NCBI RefSeq assembly: GCF_002105155.1
Contig: NW_019028996.1
Location: forward strand, 372,001-436,000
Length of the DNA stretch: 64,000 bases
Direction of reading: 5' to 3'
DNA from: Lobosporangium transversale
Taxonomy: Eukaryota
This document shows positions 19,141-64,000 of this stretch, piece by piece. The notes beneath the pieces are model-generated. The model did no database searches. It had not been told where the DNA came from and saw only the letters and a list, made by a program, of their open reading frames with translations. Within the stretch, counting starts at the first letter, position 1, and each line of letters starts with the position of its first letter. The translations under genes and the position numbers were made by a program.

Positions 19141-19409
19141 CCATATTCGGATGAATTGCAACTGAGGTGAATATTTAGCATTTACATGAATAGGTAAGAT
19201 GAAAATAAAGTGAATACATGGAGCAATATAGAGAGCTGTAATAAAGCGCTTTATGTTTAATAGATTGCAAAGAGTTTATATATCTGTATGGGTACTGTTT
19301 CTGAGAAATATGTACGCCTTGTTGAGGCTCAGTGGAGGTTAATTGCACATACTTTCAAAAACCACCATGCCGCGCACGGACCACGGGACGACTTTCCAAT
19401 TCTTTTATG

Positions 19410-19489
19410 GAGATGAAATCCAAAGTCGTCCCCGGTTAAATAGTCTCGGCTCACGCTATTTAACCGAGGGCGACTTTGGATATCATCTC
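19410..19489. repeat. 80-bp palindromic (foldback/MITE-like) element
   Basis: 34-bp inverted repeats 19410-19443 and 19456-19489 with 3 mismatches, 12-nt loop; no clear TSD. Confidence 0.8.
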
Positions 19490-19509
19490 AAAAAAAAATT
19501 AATTTAGTG

Positions 19510-21320
19510 ATCATCTACGCGACAGATTCAAACAGGCTCTTGATGGCAAGAAGGCTGGTGATCAAATCATATTGTCTTCAATCGGACAGAAGCCCAGAGA
19601 GTTTGGCGAAGGCTTTCCAGGGGATTCATTTTTCATTACGGAGTAGATGATTGAAGTGTGGAAAGAATTTTCAGCAGAGAGCAAGTATTCAATCCAGAAG
19701 ATATTAGCAGGACCTATGGGAGTTGGAAAATCCTATCTCGCCATTTTCCTTGCTTGCCAAAGCCTATGCGGAAGGGTGGCCAGTACTCTACGTAACAGAT
19801 GCTGGCGAACTAGTTCAGGCAAATGTCGGTAAAACGGGTACAGAAATATGCGAGCGGTTTTTTGCCTTAAGCAAGGATAGATTGACAATTGCTGACTTCA
19901 AGGAGATTCTGAAGATGTTTTCAAGAAATCCAACTGCTGTAGACACTGCGATTTGTACAGCTTCTAGGATCCTTTCATCGCTAGTCTGTCAGGTGGATAA
20001 GAAGACCCTTGCTATCATCGATGAGCACGGCAAGCTTTTTAAAGATGGTAAACCAGTGCCAAACCTCTTCCGACCTCTGATTGACATCCATCTATGGGAT
20101 CCCGCGAGCAATGGAGCTCGAGTGATCTTTACCGTGACGGCGTTTGCTGGCTATGAAACTATAATACTCACCCGCGACGTCGATTCAATCCTAGAGTTTG
20201 TAGGTCCGCTCTTCAATACGATTTTTGACAAACTTTTAGCATCAAGTCCCCTGCTATCAGAGGAAGGTGTTAGGGAGGAAGCGAAGAGAGCCACAAACAA
20301 CGTTTCAAGGGGACTCAACATGCTGGTCGGGTTTCTTAACGAGTCTGGACCCAAAGACGTACACTTGACTACTGTACAAAAAATTAAAAAATTCGAGAAT
20401 GAACGACGCGCATCCTTTGCAGAAGCTACCCAGAAATACTATCAAAAACTTGACGATACGTCGAAGCAAATTCACCTCGAGGCCATTTCACGCATCTTTT
20501 GACCTAGAGAAAATGAAACCTTGCACCGTACGCAAGTTCCAAGTGCATATCAATCCAGGATTTAGGCTTGTTATATCGTGTCAAAGAAGGTGGTATGATC
20601 GTATACCAACTCTTATGTCCATCAGCCAACCTTGCCCTTGTTGATTTGTAAAGACAACAACCTCTTCCTGAAGATATAGCCTTTGCCATGAAAAATGGAA
20701 CATGGAACAATGAACAGTTTGAAAGAGCGATCGAACATGGGCTTTTAAAGCAGAGGAATGTCATTCTTGAAACAACAGATCTCAGTAGAAGACCCAAGGC
20801 TTCTTTGCGTATCCAATCGGAAATTTATGATATGACCACAGCGAAGCCATCGAAAGTGGATGAAAATGTGTTACGGAGGTGCTACAAAGGATACCCTATA
20901 TTTGGTTTCATTTACAATCGCACGTTTATTCAAGTATCACTTCAAAGCTTCGCTGAGCATGAAAAAATTAAAAGCAAACAGATTTCAAAGGCCTTTAAGA
21001 GAAAGAGAGACGATCGTGATGAATCAGCAATGGAGTCCGAGGGACACAAAGGAAAGCGGAGAGTAAGTAGCAAAGAAAGTCGAAGACGATAGAAACCAGG
21101 TTGAGATTTATTTGGATGCAGTCTTTGGAGGAAAGCATGAAGCAAAGATTAATCCTACGACGAAGCTTTTTGAGGCTTCGAAGGATGGCAAGAGATTGGA
21201 TGATTTTAGGATTATTTACATGAGTGGAAAGCCGTTGCCCAAAAATGTGAAAGGCTAAGGAATATCCCGGCCTTTTACATGTAGACTTTAACGAAATTAT
21301 TTGGAGACCTGCATCACAAA
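19510..21320 (+). pseudogene. Frameshifted Crinkler-like P-loop NTPase + restriction-endonuclease-fold protein, N-terminus missing
   Basis: Walker A LAGPMGVGKS, AKAYAEGWPVLYV, Walker B IIDEHG, NEQFERAI, FIQVSLQSF, NQVEIYLDAVFGGKH; stop at 19644-19646 and several frameshifts. Confidence 0.7.
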
Positions 21321-50594: not shown

Positions 50595-52080
50595 TTTTTT
50601 TTTTTTTTTTTTCTTTGATAACAAGGACCCTCAGGGTCATGGGATTTATTTTCTACACTCTATGAACAAAATGCTCCAGAAACTATAGTCAATAAACAGC
50701 TATTACTGCGCAAACGACAAGAACCGCTGTATCCATGATTTCATAAACCCTGACCGCCGTGGTTGGTACTCAAAGTCCACCTTTCCGACGTGGCCTGTTG
50801 CGCAACGCGACAAATTATCCGCTATCCATAGTCATCAAAAACTTCATTCCACCTAGCCGCTCCATCACGTCCAGTTTGGTTTTCCCAAGGTAACTGTCCC
50901 GGACTCGGTCATCCGCGATCTTGTAGATCTCTTTTACATTCAGCTTCTGTCTTTGTCTGAGGGAAGGGACAAGGAAATCATTGCTACTACGTCTGTGCTC
51001 CCCAACACAGTTGCGTCCTCTAGCGCGTTTGCTCATAGCAGTGATTCCACGAGCCTTTTCCCATTCAACGGTGACTTTACACCGTTTGTTCCAGATTTCT
51101 GTACGACCGAATTCCTCTATGGCCTTGACGAAGCGCCCTGCCATATATGTAGCTATCCTTGTTGTTGTCTTGAAGCCAACTTTCCAACTCTGAGCAATGG
51201 ACTTGGGCGTAAGTCCATGGTAAATGTCCTGCACAGACCAATCTGGTGTGTGCTCTCTCTTCCTCATCATCGCCGTTCCTATCACCATGGCGTCGTACTT
51301 CTCGCACACCATCGATATGCATCTCCAGAGTTTTCCAAATGTAGTCCTCCTCTGCCGCAGTAAAAGTTGGCTCTTTTGTCCTTGGTGGGTCTACACCTCT
51401 CTCCCTGGCCCTTTGTGCTTGCTCCTGCACTGCTTTCAACTCTTTCCCCTATCACATTCACATTTTGGATTATCTCCTTCCACTTCTCGGCCTGAGTCTC
51501 CATCGTCCTTGGACATCTCCAGATGTGCGATGTGTCTTCATCCTCTGTCCCACACACTCTGCAGTTGCCGTCTTCATAAAGGTCCAGCCTCCAGTGTCTC
51601 ATATATGACTGTAGGCAACATTCCATGGAGTTTCTTGATTCTGTGCGCTCGCTTTTGGCAGTCCGCTGGGCTGGCGAAGAGTCCTTTCGGTAGGTTGCTA
51701 TCATGAACAATGTTCATAGTAGCTCGCCAATCAATTTTTGTCCAATCCTTAACATGCTCCTGCGTCCTGTTCTGGACGATCCAAGTGTGATGTGTACGAG
51801 TTGTTGACTGTAACTTAAGGATCTGCCTTAAGTCATCTTCCGCTGGTACACCGTTGAACTTTGCATGGCAGTACATGTCATTATGCTCCGTTATGTTGAT
51901 ATCCCATAGCTCGCCATAATGTCCATGTTTTGCTGCTTCGTCCGCTTCTTCGTTCCCTCGGTTGCCGGCATGTCCTTTGACCCACTCGACCGTGACTTCC
52001 GATCCTTGTTGAATAAATGCGTTGTGTATAGCTGCCCACCATACTGCATACGGTGATCTAATACGTTGTCGCAACATGAC
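50595..52080 (-). mobile_element. 5'-truncated non-LTR retrotransposon (LINE): RNase H C-terminal half + CCHC zinc knuckle + 3' UTR with possible poly(A)
   Basis: VEWVKGHAGNRGNEEADEAAK; IKKLHGMLPT; CRVCGTEDEDTSHIWRC; EIWNKRC; frameshifts; A18 on the element strand at 50595-50612. Confidence 0.85.
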
Positions 52081-52203
52081 GTCCAGGCAGGACGGGGTGG
52101 GTTTGAGGGTACCACTATAGGTATACCTCTGGTCCTACCTACCATGACGTCACTTGTTATAGGACGTGAGCTTAAGTTGCCTCGATTTAGGACACATTTA
52201 GAA

Positions 52204-52286
52204 GGTGGGATGGCCGAGTTGGTCTAAGGCGCCGCACTCAAGTTGCGGTCTCGAGAGAGGCGTGGGTTCAAATCCCACTTCCACCA
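52204..52286 (+). tRNA. tRNA-Leu(CAA), intronless
   Basis: Acceptor GGTGGGA/TTCCACC, A-box TGGCCGAGTTGG, anticodon arm CCGCA-CTCAAGT-TGCGG, long variable arm, T-arm GTGGG-TTCAAAT-CCCAC, downstream T-run terminator. Confidence 0.97.
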
Positions 52287-57487: not shown

Positions 57488-59408
57488 TGATACACTTTAA
57501 GCACCTTTACGCGCCCTCAATGTTTATTTTATTTTTTCTTGTTTGATCGAATTGGTTTTGCTTCGCCCGTGGCAACTAGATCAATATTATTCCCGCTAAG
57601 CTTTTGCCTGCGCCGTATTTTGCATATCCAAACTTCAGTTTAGCAACAGACAGCCCAAATCTTGTTTAATATTTTTTTTGTGTAATAGAGTATTATTGCA
57701 CTGCCTTTTGAGGATAGAATATGCATGACATGTGCATAATTATATATAAAATACCCTCCAGTCTACATGCTGGATGGCCCCGCCTCTAATGATGCCGGAA
57801 GCGTAAAAAAAAGTTCTGCTTATGCTAAAAAAAGAGGAAAATAAATAAATAAATAAATAAAGACAGAGGGTTGATAATTGCCATTTTGGCCATCTCTTTT
57901 TTCTTCTGTCACTTTGGTTCATTAGCATGGCAGATGTAAACTAAAATGCATTGAAAGGATAATAGTATTCGAAAACTCGGCTTACAAACATGTAAGACAA
58001 TGATCGAACAGTGCAGAGTCAATACCACCGCTCTGCACATCGTTTTTTTTTGTTGATATCACAGAAGTATACACATGTACTCTGGATGTGGTGAGACAAA
58101 AAAAAGTGTCTGCAAGCACTTTTCCCAAGCATCTTCCTTAGCATTATTCGATTCAGGTACATCCAAGCATAGGAGAAGGAAAGACAAGTTGGTGTGATCT
58201 GGATTACGGAAAATAATAATAATGCACAGGCACCAATTATTTCTTTGTATTCATTCACTTCACTAAAGACACAGCAACTAGCATGTTAATGTCAGACGAG
58301 CGAGGGCAAATCAGAGAGGAAAAACAAACGATGTTTTTTTTTTTTTTTTTTTTTTTTTTTCTTTTTCGCGTCATATAGAGAGTCAGGACTTAGTTTATGC
58401 TATCTTGGCAGTTATTAGGTTTATTCATTTAAATATTTGTATATAATTAATAATAGTATTATGATAGAGAAGAAAAGTAAAGATAGGAGAAAACGGCGAT
58501 TCCAGACAGATCTGTCTATTAATCAATCTGTCTAATCGTTGTCATCTCAACTTGGGATAGGGACTAGCATACTTTGTTGTTATTGTGCTGGAAAAAAAAA
58601 AGGCCAAAGATACCTTTGGCAGGGCAACTTTCTACGATACGATGGGTCTTGCTGTCATCGCTTGATTGTTTCTAAAAGAGTCCCCCTGTCAGTTTTGAGA
58701 TGTAGTTGTACGTCGCATATGTGGTCAAAAGAATGCCAACCATCACAACAGAGTCTAATATACAACGTTAGCAGAGAGAAAGAGAACAGCGTGAGATATA
58801 GTAAACAATAGCCAGGATGAATCCAAGTTCAGAAGCACACTGTTGTTTGATGTTGTACGAACAAAGTGAAAAAGGCCTTTGCTCATTCACAGCACATATC
58901 CACTTGTGAGTTTTGTGGTTTTTTTTTTTTTTTTTTTTTCATCACTTCATCATCACTTCATCATCTTGTCTTCTGGTTAACTACAGGATCAACAAAATGA
59001 ACTACGTACTAAAGACAGCCTTCTCCCATGGTTCGAGCATATACAGTCCAGTGGTGACTTCATAGCTGTAGTTGAGTTGTTTGACATAGCTTCGGAGACC
59101 CATGATGCTGATCTGGATGAGATTGTTGTTTAAATAGTTGAGCGTAAAAATGATGATGAATAAAAAAAAGGATTAGCGGCTGAACTCATTACCCTTTCAG
59201 AACTCTGCGCTTCCCAGTGACTGTTCTCCACAATACCCTCTTCAGAACATGATCTGGAAGTATATATCATCTGGATCCTTTCGATCTCTATTGCTGCAGT
59301 TTCGTTCCCATTTATTCATTGATTAGGCTTCAATGAACAAAGAGGGACCAAAGAGTAGATTAACCAAAACTGTCAAGAAGTTGGGCCATCGAATAAAATC
59401 ATTACAGA

Positions 59409-61110
59409 TGCTTTTTCGAGCAAATCCGAGAAGGACATCCCTGTTGTGAGTACTATGACATTGACTGGAAACTTACTACGGCCTCCAAGGGAAACGTTGA
59501 TCTCCCTTCACTCGAAGACGGCGCTAGCCCACCCGTCCCTAGCGAAGGCATCGATGCTATTGCGCGACTTGAAAAATAAGTGCTTGGTGAGTTTCTTGCT
59601 GCTCGCAACCAATATGCACCGGAATATCCCGTCACCGAGAATCAATGCCGAATCTTGACTTCATCCATTCATAAAAAGATATCATTGCATGTCATGATAC
59701 CAACATGTGCATTTGAGAACAATCACAGACACCTTCGAACATTCCTGCTTGACTCTTTCGATGATATCAAAGCTGATCAGGATCAGAATGAAGGTAAGCT
59801 GCTCAAGTACATTGATTCAGGTGTATACTCAAGAAGCAGAAGCATTCGATGTCTCAGAAGCTCGAAACTTAAAGACATGGTCAGACATTTCGTCCGTGCC
59901 CCATGGCACCAGGCATATATGGATGCATTGGATGGAGAACTTTTCATCACCAATGTTCGGTCTGATAGTACCAAAGTGGTATATCAGACTGTGGCTAACA
60001 GACGCTCACAACGCCAGCTCAATCAGATAACACAATCATCAACAACACCTGGAGATATGACGCAAACCTTCCAGTTGTCCTTATCTCATGTTGTTGCTGA
60101 TGCTGTCAAGGTATATTTGCGCAGTACAAGTATGCAAGCCAGTATAAGATGATGGAATACAGTGGCGGTATGATTTTCAAGCTGAGACGAGATCGTGCAG
60201 GTCAGTGTGATGTGTGTAAACGGATCCATGACAGAGACAATGCATTTTTGAAGCTTAGGATAGCCGGCAGGATTTACCTACACTATCATCGCTCAGAGGA
60301 TACCAGAAACTGCCGTGGAGATAGGCAGACTCGACTTTTGTCAGACTATAGAGGCCATGGCCAGACTCCCATTAGGAGACCCTTCTACTATATTGAATGC
60401 AGACACCACTTACAATGAGCGTTATGTCAAGCATACTTATCTATCGCCTCCCAAACGCAGCCATCGCGAGTTCAATATAGTGCAGAAACAACCCCCCAGT
60501 TTGATGATTCGATCTGATATAGGTACATTAAAAACAGTATTGGAAGAGCAACCCGTCAAGGCAGATAAGGGATCCAAATTCGTTGCAATCACATGCAGAC
60601 GAACGTTAGCCGATATGCTTACAGTGCGCCTCGTGTTCACTGACTACCGAGACATCAAGGGCAAGCAAGGCACAGGATGGTGACCAGGTAATGATGTATG
60701 AGACAGAAGAGTTGTTGAAGCTTAAAGTGTTAGACTTGTTGTAGGATCGCAAGCGTATCTGGATATTGAGCACACATAGCGCTGAAAATACTGAGTCACT
60801 ACAACAAATGCTCCAGGAAAAAGGTTTTCGTGGGATGTGCGTGACCAAGAATACATCGGAAGTTGACAAGCACAACATAGTCAAGAATAACAACAGCCAC
60901 ATGGCTAACCTTGACTACTTTATCCATGCTCCCAGTATCTCGATGGGTATTGATTACAATGTTGGGAATCGTGTAAACTATGTTATAGGATTCTTCAGCA
61001 CTCATAGTAAAGTCAATATGGAGACATGTGGACAGATGATGCGGTGTGTCAGGCATGTCAAGTCCAACACAACCTGGCTCACCTCGATAGAGCCACAAAC
61101 AATCTACTAA
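59409..61110 (+). pseudogene. Decayed PrimPol-type AEP primase-polymerase + Zn finger + UL9/origin-binding-protein-like SF2 helicase
   Basis: FFEQIREGHPCCEYYDID (motif I), KISLHV (SxH), IDSGVYSRSRSIR (motif III), CDVCKRIHDRDN, IRSDIGTLKT (degenerate Walker A), ITCRRTLA, APSISMGIDY, QMMRCVRHV; stops and frameshifts; no introns seen. Confidence 0.8.
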
Positions 61111-61402
61111 CTTCAGTCCAAGGTGTCCGTAATTAGATCATCAACTAGTACAGCATTATGAAAAGTGGAAAAAGAGGGTTTTTAGGACAAATTACATGCT
61201 AGCTATAGAGAAGGCCTCACGCTATTTGAGCATGACTTCTACAACCAACTGACAGCAATGAGTACCAGGCTGCATATGAGAAGCTCTCCAGCATCAAAGT
61301 CAAACTAAACCATGGTTGAGGTTTACTAGGGCTACAGGAGGCATTTTTATCTGCAGCTATTGTGCAGCCCAACATATTAGATACCGCAGATGAGACCATG
61401 AC

Positions 61403-61500
61403 CAGTGCTCCTATTCGAACTGAAATTTTGTCAATTATGATGTTTCAGATTAAAAAAATAAATATCAATTGACAAAATTTCAGTTCGAATAGGAGCACTG
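61403..61500. mobile_element. 98-bp hAT-type MITE
   Basis: Perfect 34-bp TIRs CAGTGCTCCTATTCGAACTGAAATTTTGTCAATT (61403-61436, 61467-61500); perfect 8-bp TSD ACCATGAC (61395-61402, 61501-61508). Confidence 0.92.
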
Positions 61501-61503
61501 ACC

Positions 61504-61680
61504 ATGACAGAGACAATGCACGAAGGGTACGAGGTTGCTAGAATATTAGACCGCCATGAAGATGACAATGACATGGAGTTTTTGGTTCAATGGAAAGGCT
61601 TTGAGGTTTCTGAGGCAACATGGGCAACTCTGCACCATTTCAACTACAAACAGTGCGTCCAAGACCAAAATCAACTTCTA
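61504..61680 (+). pseudogene. Chromodomain-coding fragment
   Basis: YEVARILDRH...EFLVQWKGFEVSEATW matches the chromodomain pattern YxVExI...Y/FLVKWKGY..E.TW. Confidence 0.8.
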
Positions 61681-62143
61681 GGGACTGGTTTTATGCATTT
61701 TCAAAAAATACCACGTTGCGCACGGACCAGACTGGTGGGTAGAGCGTCCTTTTTGTTACAAGTCTACTCACCGGATAAACATTTCACCGAGGTGGAACAA
61801 TGAAACGGATTCACAATTTTGAACAGAACAACTCTCATAGCTATGAATGAATGGACACTTGAGTGGATCGACAATAGCAATTGAAATAACACCTTTTGTG
61901 ATGCAGATGGCCTGCCAGGCACTGGCATCGTTTCAGCAAATGGAACATGCTCAAGCAGTGTGGCATTTTTTTAAAAAAGCAAACTTTATGAAGGATTTAG
62001 ACTCGGGGCAATGCTGAAATACGTATAATTTATCGCTACTAATCTAGACATTTATGCCACCCGTCCACTTGCATACGTCTTTACTGAGAGGTCAGTAAGC
62101 TACCTGGGATGTGCGTTCTTTGGGACCGATACACCTGTGCTGA

Positions 62144-63995
62144 CTAATTAATAAAATCATTCACCAAAACTTCTCTTGAGGTAAATGATCCTATATTAAT
62201 GGGAGGCATAGCTACTTCAGGGGCCCCAAAAAATTTGTTTTTAAGTTCCGTAGCATTGACATGGAGCAATTGTGGATATTTCTTAACGAGCCCAGTATGG
62301 TTCGGGATATTCAAACATCCACAAATATAGACAATTTTAAAGTCGTCAAGCTCATCTCCATCCCTTGTTAAGTGAAATAAATTTGTGTTAGAATCGATCC
62401 AGGCCCTGTGCACCCCTTCAAACGCACTATCCATATATACCTCAATTTGATTTCTATTTTCGATCGATTTTGTCTTGTCTTTCCCTTAGTCTGGGCGGCG
62501 AGGATCAGGGGGGTTGGAGGGCGCAAAGGCTTTCGTGATGATTGCTGAACTGTCGTCATGATCATCAAATTTTGATATCGAGACTTGAATAATGTCTTGT
62601 CGTAGACATAATCGAACCTCCCAGTACCCTTTGGAAACCTCCTGAGTGTATTTTCTCTAGTTCCTATAGACGGGTCCAAGACCATGTCAGAGGAACGGCA
62701 TCTTCTCCTCCCAGATTTGTTGTATTAAGGGTAAACCCTCTGTAAGAAACGAAAGTTTGGAACAACAAATCCTCGAACTCGTTGGGATCCAAGTTCCCAC
62801 CCCTCAGGGCATTAAAAGAATCTTTAGGGAGTGGCATCTTTCTATATATGTCGAGGAGAGCCTCCTTTGCCGGTGGACATAAGAAATAGTGCTCAACTCT
62901 CCTATTAATCCGACGTAGATAAATCAAGCTAAGATCAATGAACGGAGGCCCATGTACATGTACATCTGGGCGAAATAACGCAGAAAGAGCAGAACGCTGA
63001 GAATTTTGTTGGACCTCAGTGAGTATATGGAAGTATTCCTTTGATTTTTTATAGAATGTTTCGCACCGCGCCGATTCAAATCTGCCGATCTTTTGTTGAA
63101 TAGGTATCGTCATCAAGTCTGCTACCATCACTAATATAGTCTATTAATTTAACGACCTCTTGGGACATTATTGGTTACTCTCTTCACCTCCTTTTTTACG
63201 GTATTCCTCGATGGCAAGGTGCTCAAGGATAGGGTCTTGTCGAAGATATTGTTCGATAAAGGCCGAACAAACTCCACCCAGTCCTCGATATCATCCGAGA
63301 TGTAGACTCTTTCATATGAAGCATGTGCCGTCCCTGTGAAGACAACCCGAACGCCATTCACATCCTGGGGCCATAAAGTTAGGTGAATTAGTGGGTTCAA
63401 AAGGTCAGGCCATGACCAATTGTTCTTGCGGAAAAGTTCGCCATGTTCATCAATGATTATGAGAGTTTTCTTGCTCTTTTGACAAAGTATCTTGGACAAA
63501 ATTATCTCGGCGGCAAAAACTATGGGATCGTCCAGAGTTTTCGTGCAGTAACAACTTTTTAAGGTCTGAAGTAGCCAACAGGTCCTTATTAAGGACAAAG
63601 GATCGGAGGCATATTTCCTTAGCTGCTACAGCGACAGCCAAGTTAGCTAGTTCAGCGGCATTCGCGACATAAAGTGTTGACCAACCTTCTGCATACGCTT
63701 TTCTTGCAAGGAATATTGCAAGGGAGGATTTGCAGACGCCCATCGGTCCAGCCAATACCCTCTTGATTGATCTATTGCTATCCGCGGAGAATTTATTCCA
63801 CAGCTCCATCATCTGTTCAGTAATAATGAACGATTTGCCCTGGAAGCCTTTCCCATAGTGTTTTGGTTCTTGTCCAATATTTGGTAATTCGACTTGGTCG
63901 CCCACATCTTTTCCATCTAGTGTGGCTTTAAATTTTTTACGCGATTCTAACTTGAACCTGTCATCATTGAGCAATTCGATCAAAGTAGAATGCAA
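62144..63995 (-). pseudogene. Second frameshifted Crinkler-like NTPase + nuclease-fold paralogue (may continue beyond the window)
   Basis: VLAGPMGVCKSSLAIFLARKAYAEGW, IIDEHGELF, VFTGTAHA, TNNVPR, EFEDLLFQ, GRFDY, DDFKIVYICG; collinear with 19510-21320. Confidence 0.72.
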
Positions 63996-64000
63996 GGCTA

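Follow-up and report, generated by a model that had tools for sequence, protein, structure and literature searches.

The window analysed here, a stretch of 64,000 nucleotides from contig NW_019028996.1 of Lobosporangium transversale, contains a decayed copy of a primase-helicase gene at 59402-61251 on the plus strand, with stops, frameshifts and a deletion of helicase motifs II-III. A chromodomain begins at 61528, 277 bp past the end of the helicase homology and 475 bp past helicase motif VI. The question was whether these pieces derive from one protein, one mobile element or two. The sequence-only reading had taken them for the remains of a single primase-helicase-chromodomain protein, encoded by an endogenous virus or by an unclassified replicative DNA transposon. 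The present analysis points, with a probability of roughly 0.5, to a two-gene PHIS transposon, reduced by deletion, that had carried a virus-derived replication initiator as accessory gene. The locus was read by three-frame translation and by matching to a family profile built from 26 homologues. It comprised the following features.

59402..60110, plus strand: AEP/PrimPol primase-polymerase domain and linker (profile 67 to about 290), truncated at the 5' end, with one in-frame stop
60113..60292, plus strand: Zn-finger module C-x2-C-x3-H...C (profile 264-343), frameshifted relative to both neighbours, 82% identity to P0003
60297..60662, plus strand: start of the SF2 helicase with motifs I and Ia, 87.5% identity to P0003 over 96 aa
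60667..61251, plus strand: second RecA domain and start of the C-terminal part (profile 561-755), with 4 stops and 2 frameshifts
61251..61402, plus strand: C-terminal part of a PHIS (DDE_Tnp_4) transposase, residues ~352-398 of P0035 at 85% identity (61251-61400), with one stop
61403..61500, no strand: hairpin MITE of 98 bp, TIR starting CAGTGC, between two copies of the 8-bp target duplication ACCATGAC
61501..61681, plus strand: chromodomain and end of the transposase ORF, Pfam Chromo E 3e-9, 78-80% identity to P0035/P0031
61699..61728, no strand: candidate right TIR, with GGTCCGTGCGC at 61718-61728 read inward, ending 47 bp past the transposase stop

Profile positions 67-464 matched 59400-60662 (E 4e-115), 264-343, the Zn finger, matched in a shifted frame (E 4e-22) and 561-755 matched 60667-61251 (E 9e-63). 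These matches were far above chance, colinear, all on the plus strand and free of intron-sized gaps, in agreement with the earlier description of an intronless, one-stranded relic. Translation and profile also confirmed the AEP motifs I-III, the C-x2-C-x3-H finger and the SF2 motifs I, Ia, V and VI at the places where they had been claimed. The AEP motifs were intact, with motif I (EYYDID) at 59448-59465, motif II (SLHV) at 59682-59693 and motif III (IDSGVY) at 59811-59828. The Zn finger, CDVCKRIH at 60206-60229, has Tyr as fourth ligand, not Cys as in P0003. SF2 motif I at 60510-60536 was damaged, reading RSDIGTLKT versus RSDTGTGKT in P0003, with loss of the Walker A glycine. Motif Ia was located at 60591-60608, motif V at 60925-60948 and motif VI at 61033-61053. 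Between 60662 and 60667, about 96 codons with motifs II and III, including Walker B, were deleted. Absent from the relic were profile positions 1-66, 465-560 (Walker B, motif III) and 756-1039, so that the last ~285 residues of the primase-helicase are missing. In-frame stops totalled six across eight homologous segments. The L. transversale gene model P0002 showed 100% identity to part of the relic, and its predicted introns bypass the breaks. With Walker B, the C-terminal end of the helicase and all of the DDE core lost, the window copy is inert.

Upstream of 59402, paralogous contigs carried on with other, ORF-like sequence in all four runs, and the left break was therefore placed there. 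The extent of the relic was corrected to a start at ~59402 and an end probably at 61728. In run X5 (guessed to be RNA), a paralogous contig over 59402-59556 (record 27) had a depth of ~1,036 versus ~12 elsewhere along the helicase. Identity values show the relic to be a mosaic, with the AEP closest to P0012/P0004 (64%) and the part from Zn finger to motif Ia closest to P0003 (82-88%). Since the segments are closest to different homologues, recombination occurred at this locus.

The window itself is fungal chromosome with ordinary genes, namely those for ribonucleotide reductase, WDR3, SF3A2, AMG1, a proteasome subunit, RPL3, muskelin, INTS4, a kinase and bestrophin. GC content was even across it (0.37-0.48), and the value at the relic (0.40-0.44) was like that of the rest. 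On the minus strand, from 59103 to ~58680, the host also encodes a small subunit of serine palmitoyltransferase (PF11779, E 3e-12); 300 bp separate the start of this gene from the relic, which lies upstream of it. The gene's intron at 58755-59009 was skipped by a contig of run X5. A retroelement-type RNase H fragment (E 3e-7) at 51577-52134 on the minus strand adjoins a tRNA-Leu(CAA) gene at 52204-52286.

The source of the chromodomain was identified by a similarity search, which gave four clusters. The longest member, P0035 (459 aa), was a DDE_Tnp_4 transposase with a C-terminal chromodomain; its DDE_Tnp_4 domain was assigned to residues 172-324 (E 2.5e-7), and an Atlas structure search agreed. 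As regards PHIS membership, a DDE_Tnp_4 transposase with a DDE triad was found in P0035, the candidate triad motifs being LDGHD, LDGG and IEG. Window positions 61504-61665 matched P0035 398-451 at 78%, and the remnant as a whole comprised the last ~108 residues (~352-459) of the 459-aa protein. Relative to its paralogues it has an 11-nt deletion at 61665, just before the stop at 61679-61681, and paralogue contigs showed a loose end at 61665. Truncated transposase copies were present under eight accession numbers in one L. transversale assembly. The aromatic cage Y-W-F of the chromodomain was retained in the window, at positions that we take to be equivalent to those of HP1. By homology, the chromodomain is the C-terminus of a PIF/Harbinger-type (PHIS, DDE_Tnp_4) transposase. 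An origin from a Ty3/gypsy (chromovirus) integrase, in which the chromodomain closes an RT-RNase H-integrase polyprotein, was rejected, all four clusters being short DDE_Tnp_4/chromodomain proteins or fragments. The chromodomain had been linked to the helicase: it is indeed present downstream, and it belongs to another protein. The earlier proposal had foreseen its own failure through a separate Ty3/gypsy fragment and intact homologues without a chromodomain; the homologues do lack it, but the source is a PHIS DNA transposase.

The MITE proved real. It splits the transposase remnant and is a later insertion. A paralogous transposase contig lacked exactly 106 nt at the MITE site (skipping 187 letters, with 81 between), and taking out these 106 nt, MITE plus target duplication, joins both transposase pieces in one frame. 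Terminal inverted repeats and an 8-bp target site duplication were found, as in hAT-type MITEs, and the element was classed as hAT-like because of the duplication length. Its summed depth was ~51,000 versus ~120 in run X2, and several hundred-fold single-copy depth was reached in three DNA runs. In this genome, the hAT-like family to which the MITE belongs is large and young.

The 30-bp stretch behind the transposase stop ends in GCGCACGGACC and is a putative right TIR of the transposon. A second copy of this 30-mer was located at 19353-19382 (25/30 identical), with the GGTCCGTGCGC part at 19372-19382. Alignment of the two loci scored 55.5 versus a shuffled maximum of 54, and only the 30-bp core was therefore taken as shared. 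No inverted partner representing a left end was present in the window.

At 61251 the transposase (frame 3) follows the helicase (frame 1) out of frame. Contig record 1 of run X2 (60988-61309) bridges this junction with zero differences at single-copy depth, and an assembly error is thereby excluded. Since the transposase match starts where the helicase ends and in another frame, the chromodomain belongs to a different protein. A profile search detected no helicase C-terminus downstream of the transposase, as a nested insertion would leave. One deletion of ~2 kb explains the junction.

The relic belongs to a multicopy Mortierellaceae gene of ~1,050 aa with a PrimPol-type primase, a Zn finger and a UL9-type SF2 helicase. 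A search with P0003 gave 26 long homologues of 795-1,066 aa, 23 of them from named Mortierellaceae. PF02399 was present in 22 of the 26. The AEP residues D/D/H/D were kept in 25, 25, 26 and 24 of the 26 members, and the Walker A K and Walker B DE in all. Among the hits there were up to four diverged copies per species, with four each in Linnemannia gamsii and Haplosporangium gracile, and on a quick tree same-species copies were scattered, not grouped by species. A profile search of 1.84 billion representatives retrieved 1,148 proteins with E-values no higher than 1e-30. The top 150 listed included 144 new ones, of which 49 had 40% identity or more to the family, most of these being incomplete or gapped sequences. 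The primase-helicase behaves as a multicopy mobile gene, as these results support. A chromodomain was absent from 26 long homologues, 29 alignment members and 37 further relatives, and the same three partly overlapping sets held no integrase domain.

An N-terminal AEP of PrimPol/D5/UL52 fold with motifs I-III, as in NCLDV-type primase-helicases, was found, and a PF02399-type SF2 helicase with motifs I, II and VI was present in the family; the window copy has lost II and III and retains a damaged I. The AlphaFold model of P0005 (pLDDT 78.8) matched giant-virus origin-binding proteins and HSV-1 UL9, and the model of the N-terminal half of P0003 matched human PrimPol (E 8e-10), poxvirus D5/E5 and the herpes (HSV) primase. 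The helicase core matched UL9 (PF02399, E 2e-14) and the UL9 fold (PDB 9hgi, E 3e-15). The NCBIfam model of the plasmid initiator CyRepA1 (NF042913) scored 218.6 bits at a cut-off of 200, and two of the three family members scanned, P0005 and P0041, were above the cut-off. HSV-1 UL9 and CyRepA1 thus share a helicase core or model match with the fungal protein; HSV-1 UL9, unlike it, has no primase domain. The top named fold matches in BFVD were proteins of Marseillevirus, Bodo saltans virus and Klosneuvirinae. In the Atlas, the cluster nearest to P0005 had 268 members, most commonly Mucoromycota, followed by viral clusters (Nucleocytoviricota, Preplasmiviricota).

The closest named relative outside the family was the Marseillevirus origin-binding protein P0093, with 24% identity over 891 aligned columns (probability 100). 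In a 98-row FastTree of the helicase and C-terminal profile columns, midpoint-rooted and excluding shorter and gappy rows, the 11 Mortierellaceae-type rows formed one clade (support 1.0). A wider clade (0.987) united it with four other proteins and P0093. AEP plus UL9-like SF2 origin-binding proteins of Nucleocytoviricota, whose Marseillevirus type presumably corresponds to NCVOG0024, have the same domain order and length as the fungal family. The fungal gene differs from them in being multicopy and chromosomal, with no viral genes adjacent. Fold matches, tree and Marseillevirus alignment uphold the earlier call of a virus-type enzyme and support a primase-helicase of giant-virus type, not of cellular PrimPol type. 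The gene presumably passed from virus to fungus. Cellular PrimPol, a single-copy AEP and Zn finger without helicase, was also considered as an identity and rejected: here the helicase is fused, with up to four copies per species among the hits. Three distant relatives, P0095 (from Logan contigs), P0123 and P0162, have an AEP and a Zn finger but a different C-terminal half replacing the helicase.

Whether primase-helicase and transposase belonged to one element or to two was about even on the evidence, slightly favouring one. Both genes lie on the same strand, in the order helicase, transposase, TIR-like end, and the primase-helicase has no integrase of its own. The missing helicase tail downstream and the sufficiency of one deletion at the junction also speak for one element. 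According to the available text of PMC4482050, most PHIS groups carry a second ORF, which likewise counts for one element. No Myb/SANT or YqaJ ORF was seen here, and the primase-helicase occupies that position. In run X2, the paralogous contig of the helicase 5' part had a depth of 731 and the transposase contigs depths of 712 and 683, about 6-fold the single-copy depth of ~120 (single-copy contigs 91-133); contig depth is not copy number, and the similarity is a rough hint only. Against one element, total depth at 61552 in runs X1 and X4 (25.9 and 27.1) was lower than the helicase paralogue depth (43.6 and 40.3).

The proposed element would work as follows. By analogy with PHIS/IS5-type enzymes, the DDE transposase would cut at the terminal inverted repeats and then integrate. 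The chromodomain may bind methylated histone H3 and steer insertion to heterochromatin, as in chromovirus integrases, whose targeting by a chromodomain is summarised in the accessible part of PMC10799480. The AEP-ZnF-SF2 protein, going by its homology to UL9, CyRepA1 and PrimPol, would resemble the origin initiators of plasmids or herpesviruses in function and bind a site within the element. Its UL9-type motor would unwind the element DNA, the AEP would prime DNA synthesis and host polymerases would extend. An excised or looped copy could then be duplicated, raising copy number. That Mortierellaceae carry such a self-priming, polymerase-free and replicative PHIS transposon of ~5-6 kb, with two genes for a giant-virus-derived primase-Zn finger-UL9 helicase and a chromodomain DDE transposase, is a tentative proposal that falls a little short of even odds.

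The strongest competitor, which we regard as less probable but substantial, is that two unrelated elements met here: a primase-helicase element mobilised by a different enzyme or through recombination, and a PHIS transposon with a chromodomain transposase as its single gene that inserted just behind it in the same orientation, the remains of both being fused by a later deletion. The site is a nest of repeats, with the MITE, the repeat at 61771-62015 and an adjacent broken P-loop gene, and chance adjacency is therefore plausible; the mosaic relic itself records recombination at the locus. The transposase family also looks narrower than the helicase family, because the 268-member helicase cluster has no close transposase counterpart in the Atlas (best 0.85) and because the chromodomain search gave so few clusters. 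No intact copy with both genes was found, and a metagenome contig scan gave one locus of 1,180 bp; prokaryotic genome contigs gave no loci. None of the locus tags returned, few of which came from the same assembly, were neighbouring helicase and transposase tags. No transposase match occurred among the 144 new representatives, and the one of the 49 close representatives whose gene model had an extra segment carried one unrelated to the transposase. Contigs of the four runs, which break at repeats, showed no joint linking helicase and transposase in another copy. Two separate elements would, however, require a same-strand insertion close behind the helicase gene plus a deletion, would leave the multicopy helicase without a known integrase and would not account for the similar paralogue depths in X2.

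The end of an unknown ORF was observed at L001:2-169, on the same strand and 220 bp before the start of an intact helicase. Its peptide had no Pfam match and was not the P0035-type transposase. It may represent a further gene that the element carries.

That the primase-helicase is left over from an endogenous giant virus or Polinton-like virus, and that the transposase jumped into the provirus or next to it, is improbable. The match to the Marseillevirus protein is full-length and colinear, the Atlas neighbours include Nucleocytoviricota and Preplasmiviricota clusters, and giant-virus insertions are described for Rhizophagus and zoosporic fungi in the available portions of PMC10640383 and PMC13533422. 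Yet no capsid, packaging ATPase or polymerase was found among the 43 + 16 ORFs scanned in the window, which ends 2.3 kb downstream, so that the search for viral hallmark genes came back empty. The neighbours are ordinary host genes at host-like GC; neither the hallmark gene cluster nor the distinct composition of a giant endogenous viral element was found. The family forms one Mortierellaceae clade with many dispersed copies, and viral contigs gave no matches to A1, P0035, the L001 upstream peptide, P0059 or P0075. Of the two origins first suggested, the virus is therefore unlikely and the replicative transposon survives, in a two-gene form.

A duplicated host gene family decaying here, such as a domesticated PrimPol-helicase for repair or mitochondrial DNA, would fit the strongly conserved catalytic motifs but is very unlikely given the scattered positions of a species' copies on the tree, the many fragmentary relatives and the near-identical multicopy paralogues in this genome; cellular PrimPol, moreover, lacks a helicase. 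That a single ORF once encoded a primase-helicase-chromodomain protein is refuted for the intact family and hardly credible here. All parts lie on one strand within 2.3 kb, but taking out the MITE brings only the two transposase pieces, chromodomain included, into one frame. Transposase sequence makes up the 50 residues in front of the MITE, the helicase is in another frame and no homologue carries a chromodomain.

The helpers found on known fungal DDE transposons are RecQ helicases, exonucleases or chromatin enzymes, and known self-synthesizing elements carry a family-B polymerase. If the two-gene PHIS transposon is real, it would pair a cut-and-paste transposase with a primase-helicase initiator and so bridge helper-carrying DDE transposons and self-synthesizing elements. 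The role of PHIS second ORFs would become testable, with a clear biochemical prediction, and a giant-virus gene would have persisted in fungi as mobile cargo long after loss of the virus. Even if the two genes are unlinked, two families not found described remain, a virus-type initiator gene of Mortierellaceae and a chromodomain-tipped PHIS transposase.

With the PHIS superfamily (PIF/Harbinger, ISL2EU, Pangu, Nuwa, Spy) the proposed element shares the DDE_Tnp_4 transposase and the usual two-gene layout. PHIS transposons typically have paired TIRs that begin with G/A or GG, and their target site duplications measure 0-3 bp (TWA, AT, ANT, CWG, TNA). Its candidate TIR starts with GG, as in ISL2EU and Pangu, but the second ORFs described in the accessible text of PMC4482050, which also gives these termini, are Myb/SANT, YqaJ, SET or TET proteins and not a primase-helicase. 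AcademH and KolobokH likewise combine a fungal DDE transposase with an SF2 helicase; as far as the available parts of PMC9587614, PMC10045372 and PMC10799480 describe them, the helicase is RecQ-type without a primase and the transposases are of other superfamilies. Polintons/Mavericks, casposons and Teratorn couple an integrase to replication genes, as proposed here; Teratorn, in the accessible text of PMC6431247, combines a DDE transposase with genes of a herpesvirus. Unlike these self-synthesizing elements, the proposed one has no family-B polymerase, capsid or packaging ATPase, and its predicted unit is only ~5-6 kb. In text available from the respective papers, PIF/Harbinger elements were reported in Mortierella (PMC5751038) and AEP-UL9 fusions in mobile elements of prokaryotes (PMC5862659). 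A figure legend of PMC9963178 lists chromodomain and Harbinger domains for Mucor elements, the bearer of each not being distinguishable. The accessible literature, with Repbase Reports and most subscription journals outside its scope, held no description of the helicase family as a fungal mobile gene. It likewise held no PHIS element with a primase-helicase or chromodomain, although the supplements of PMC5751038, PMC4482050 and PMC12730594 may list some.

Among 20 helicase-bearing records shorter than 20 kb, five were 5.5-6.0 kb and five were 8.9-9.7 kb long, as plain counts. Directly after the second TIR-like copy, a hairpin was present at 19384-19500 (34-bp arms, -33 kcal/mol). Sequence related to it forms a loose end at 61771, where a multicopy repeat extends over ~61771-62015. 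The motif GPMGV(G/C)KS occurs in two disrupted P-loop NTPase genes, presumably Crinkler-like, at 62144-63998 (minus strand) and ~19480-21089 (plus strand). Both genes were multicopy by contig depth, and each lies near a TIR-like 30-mer.
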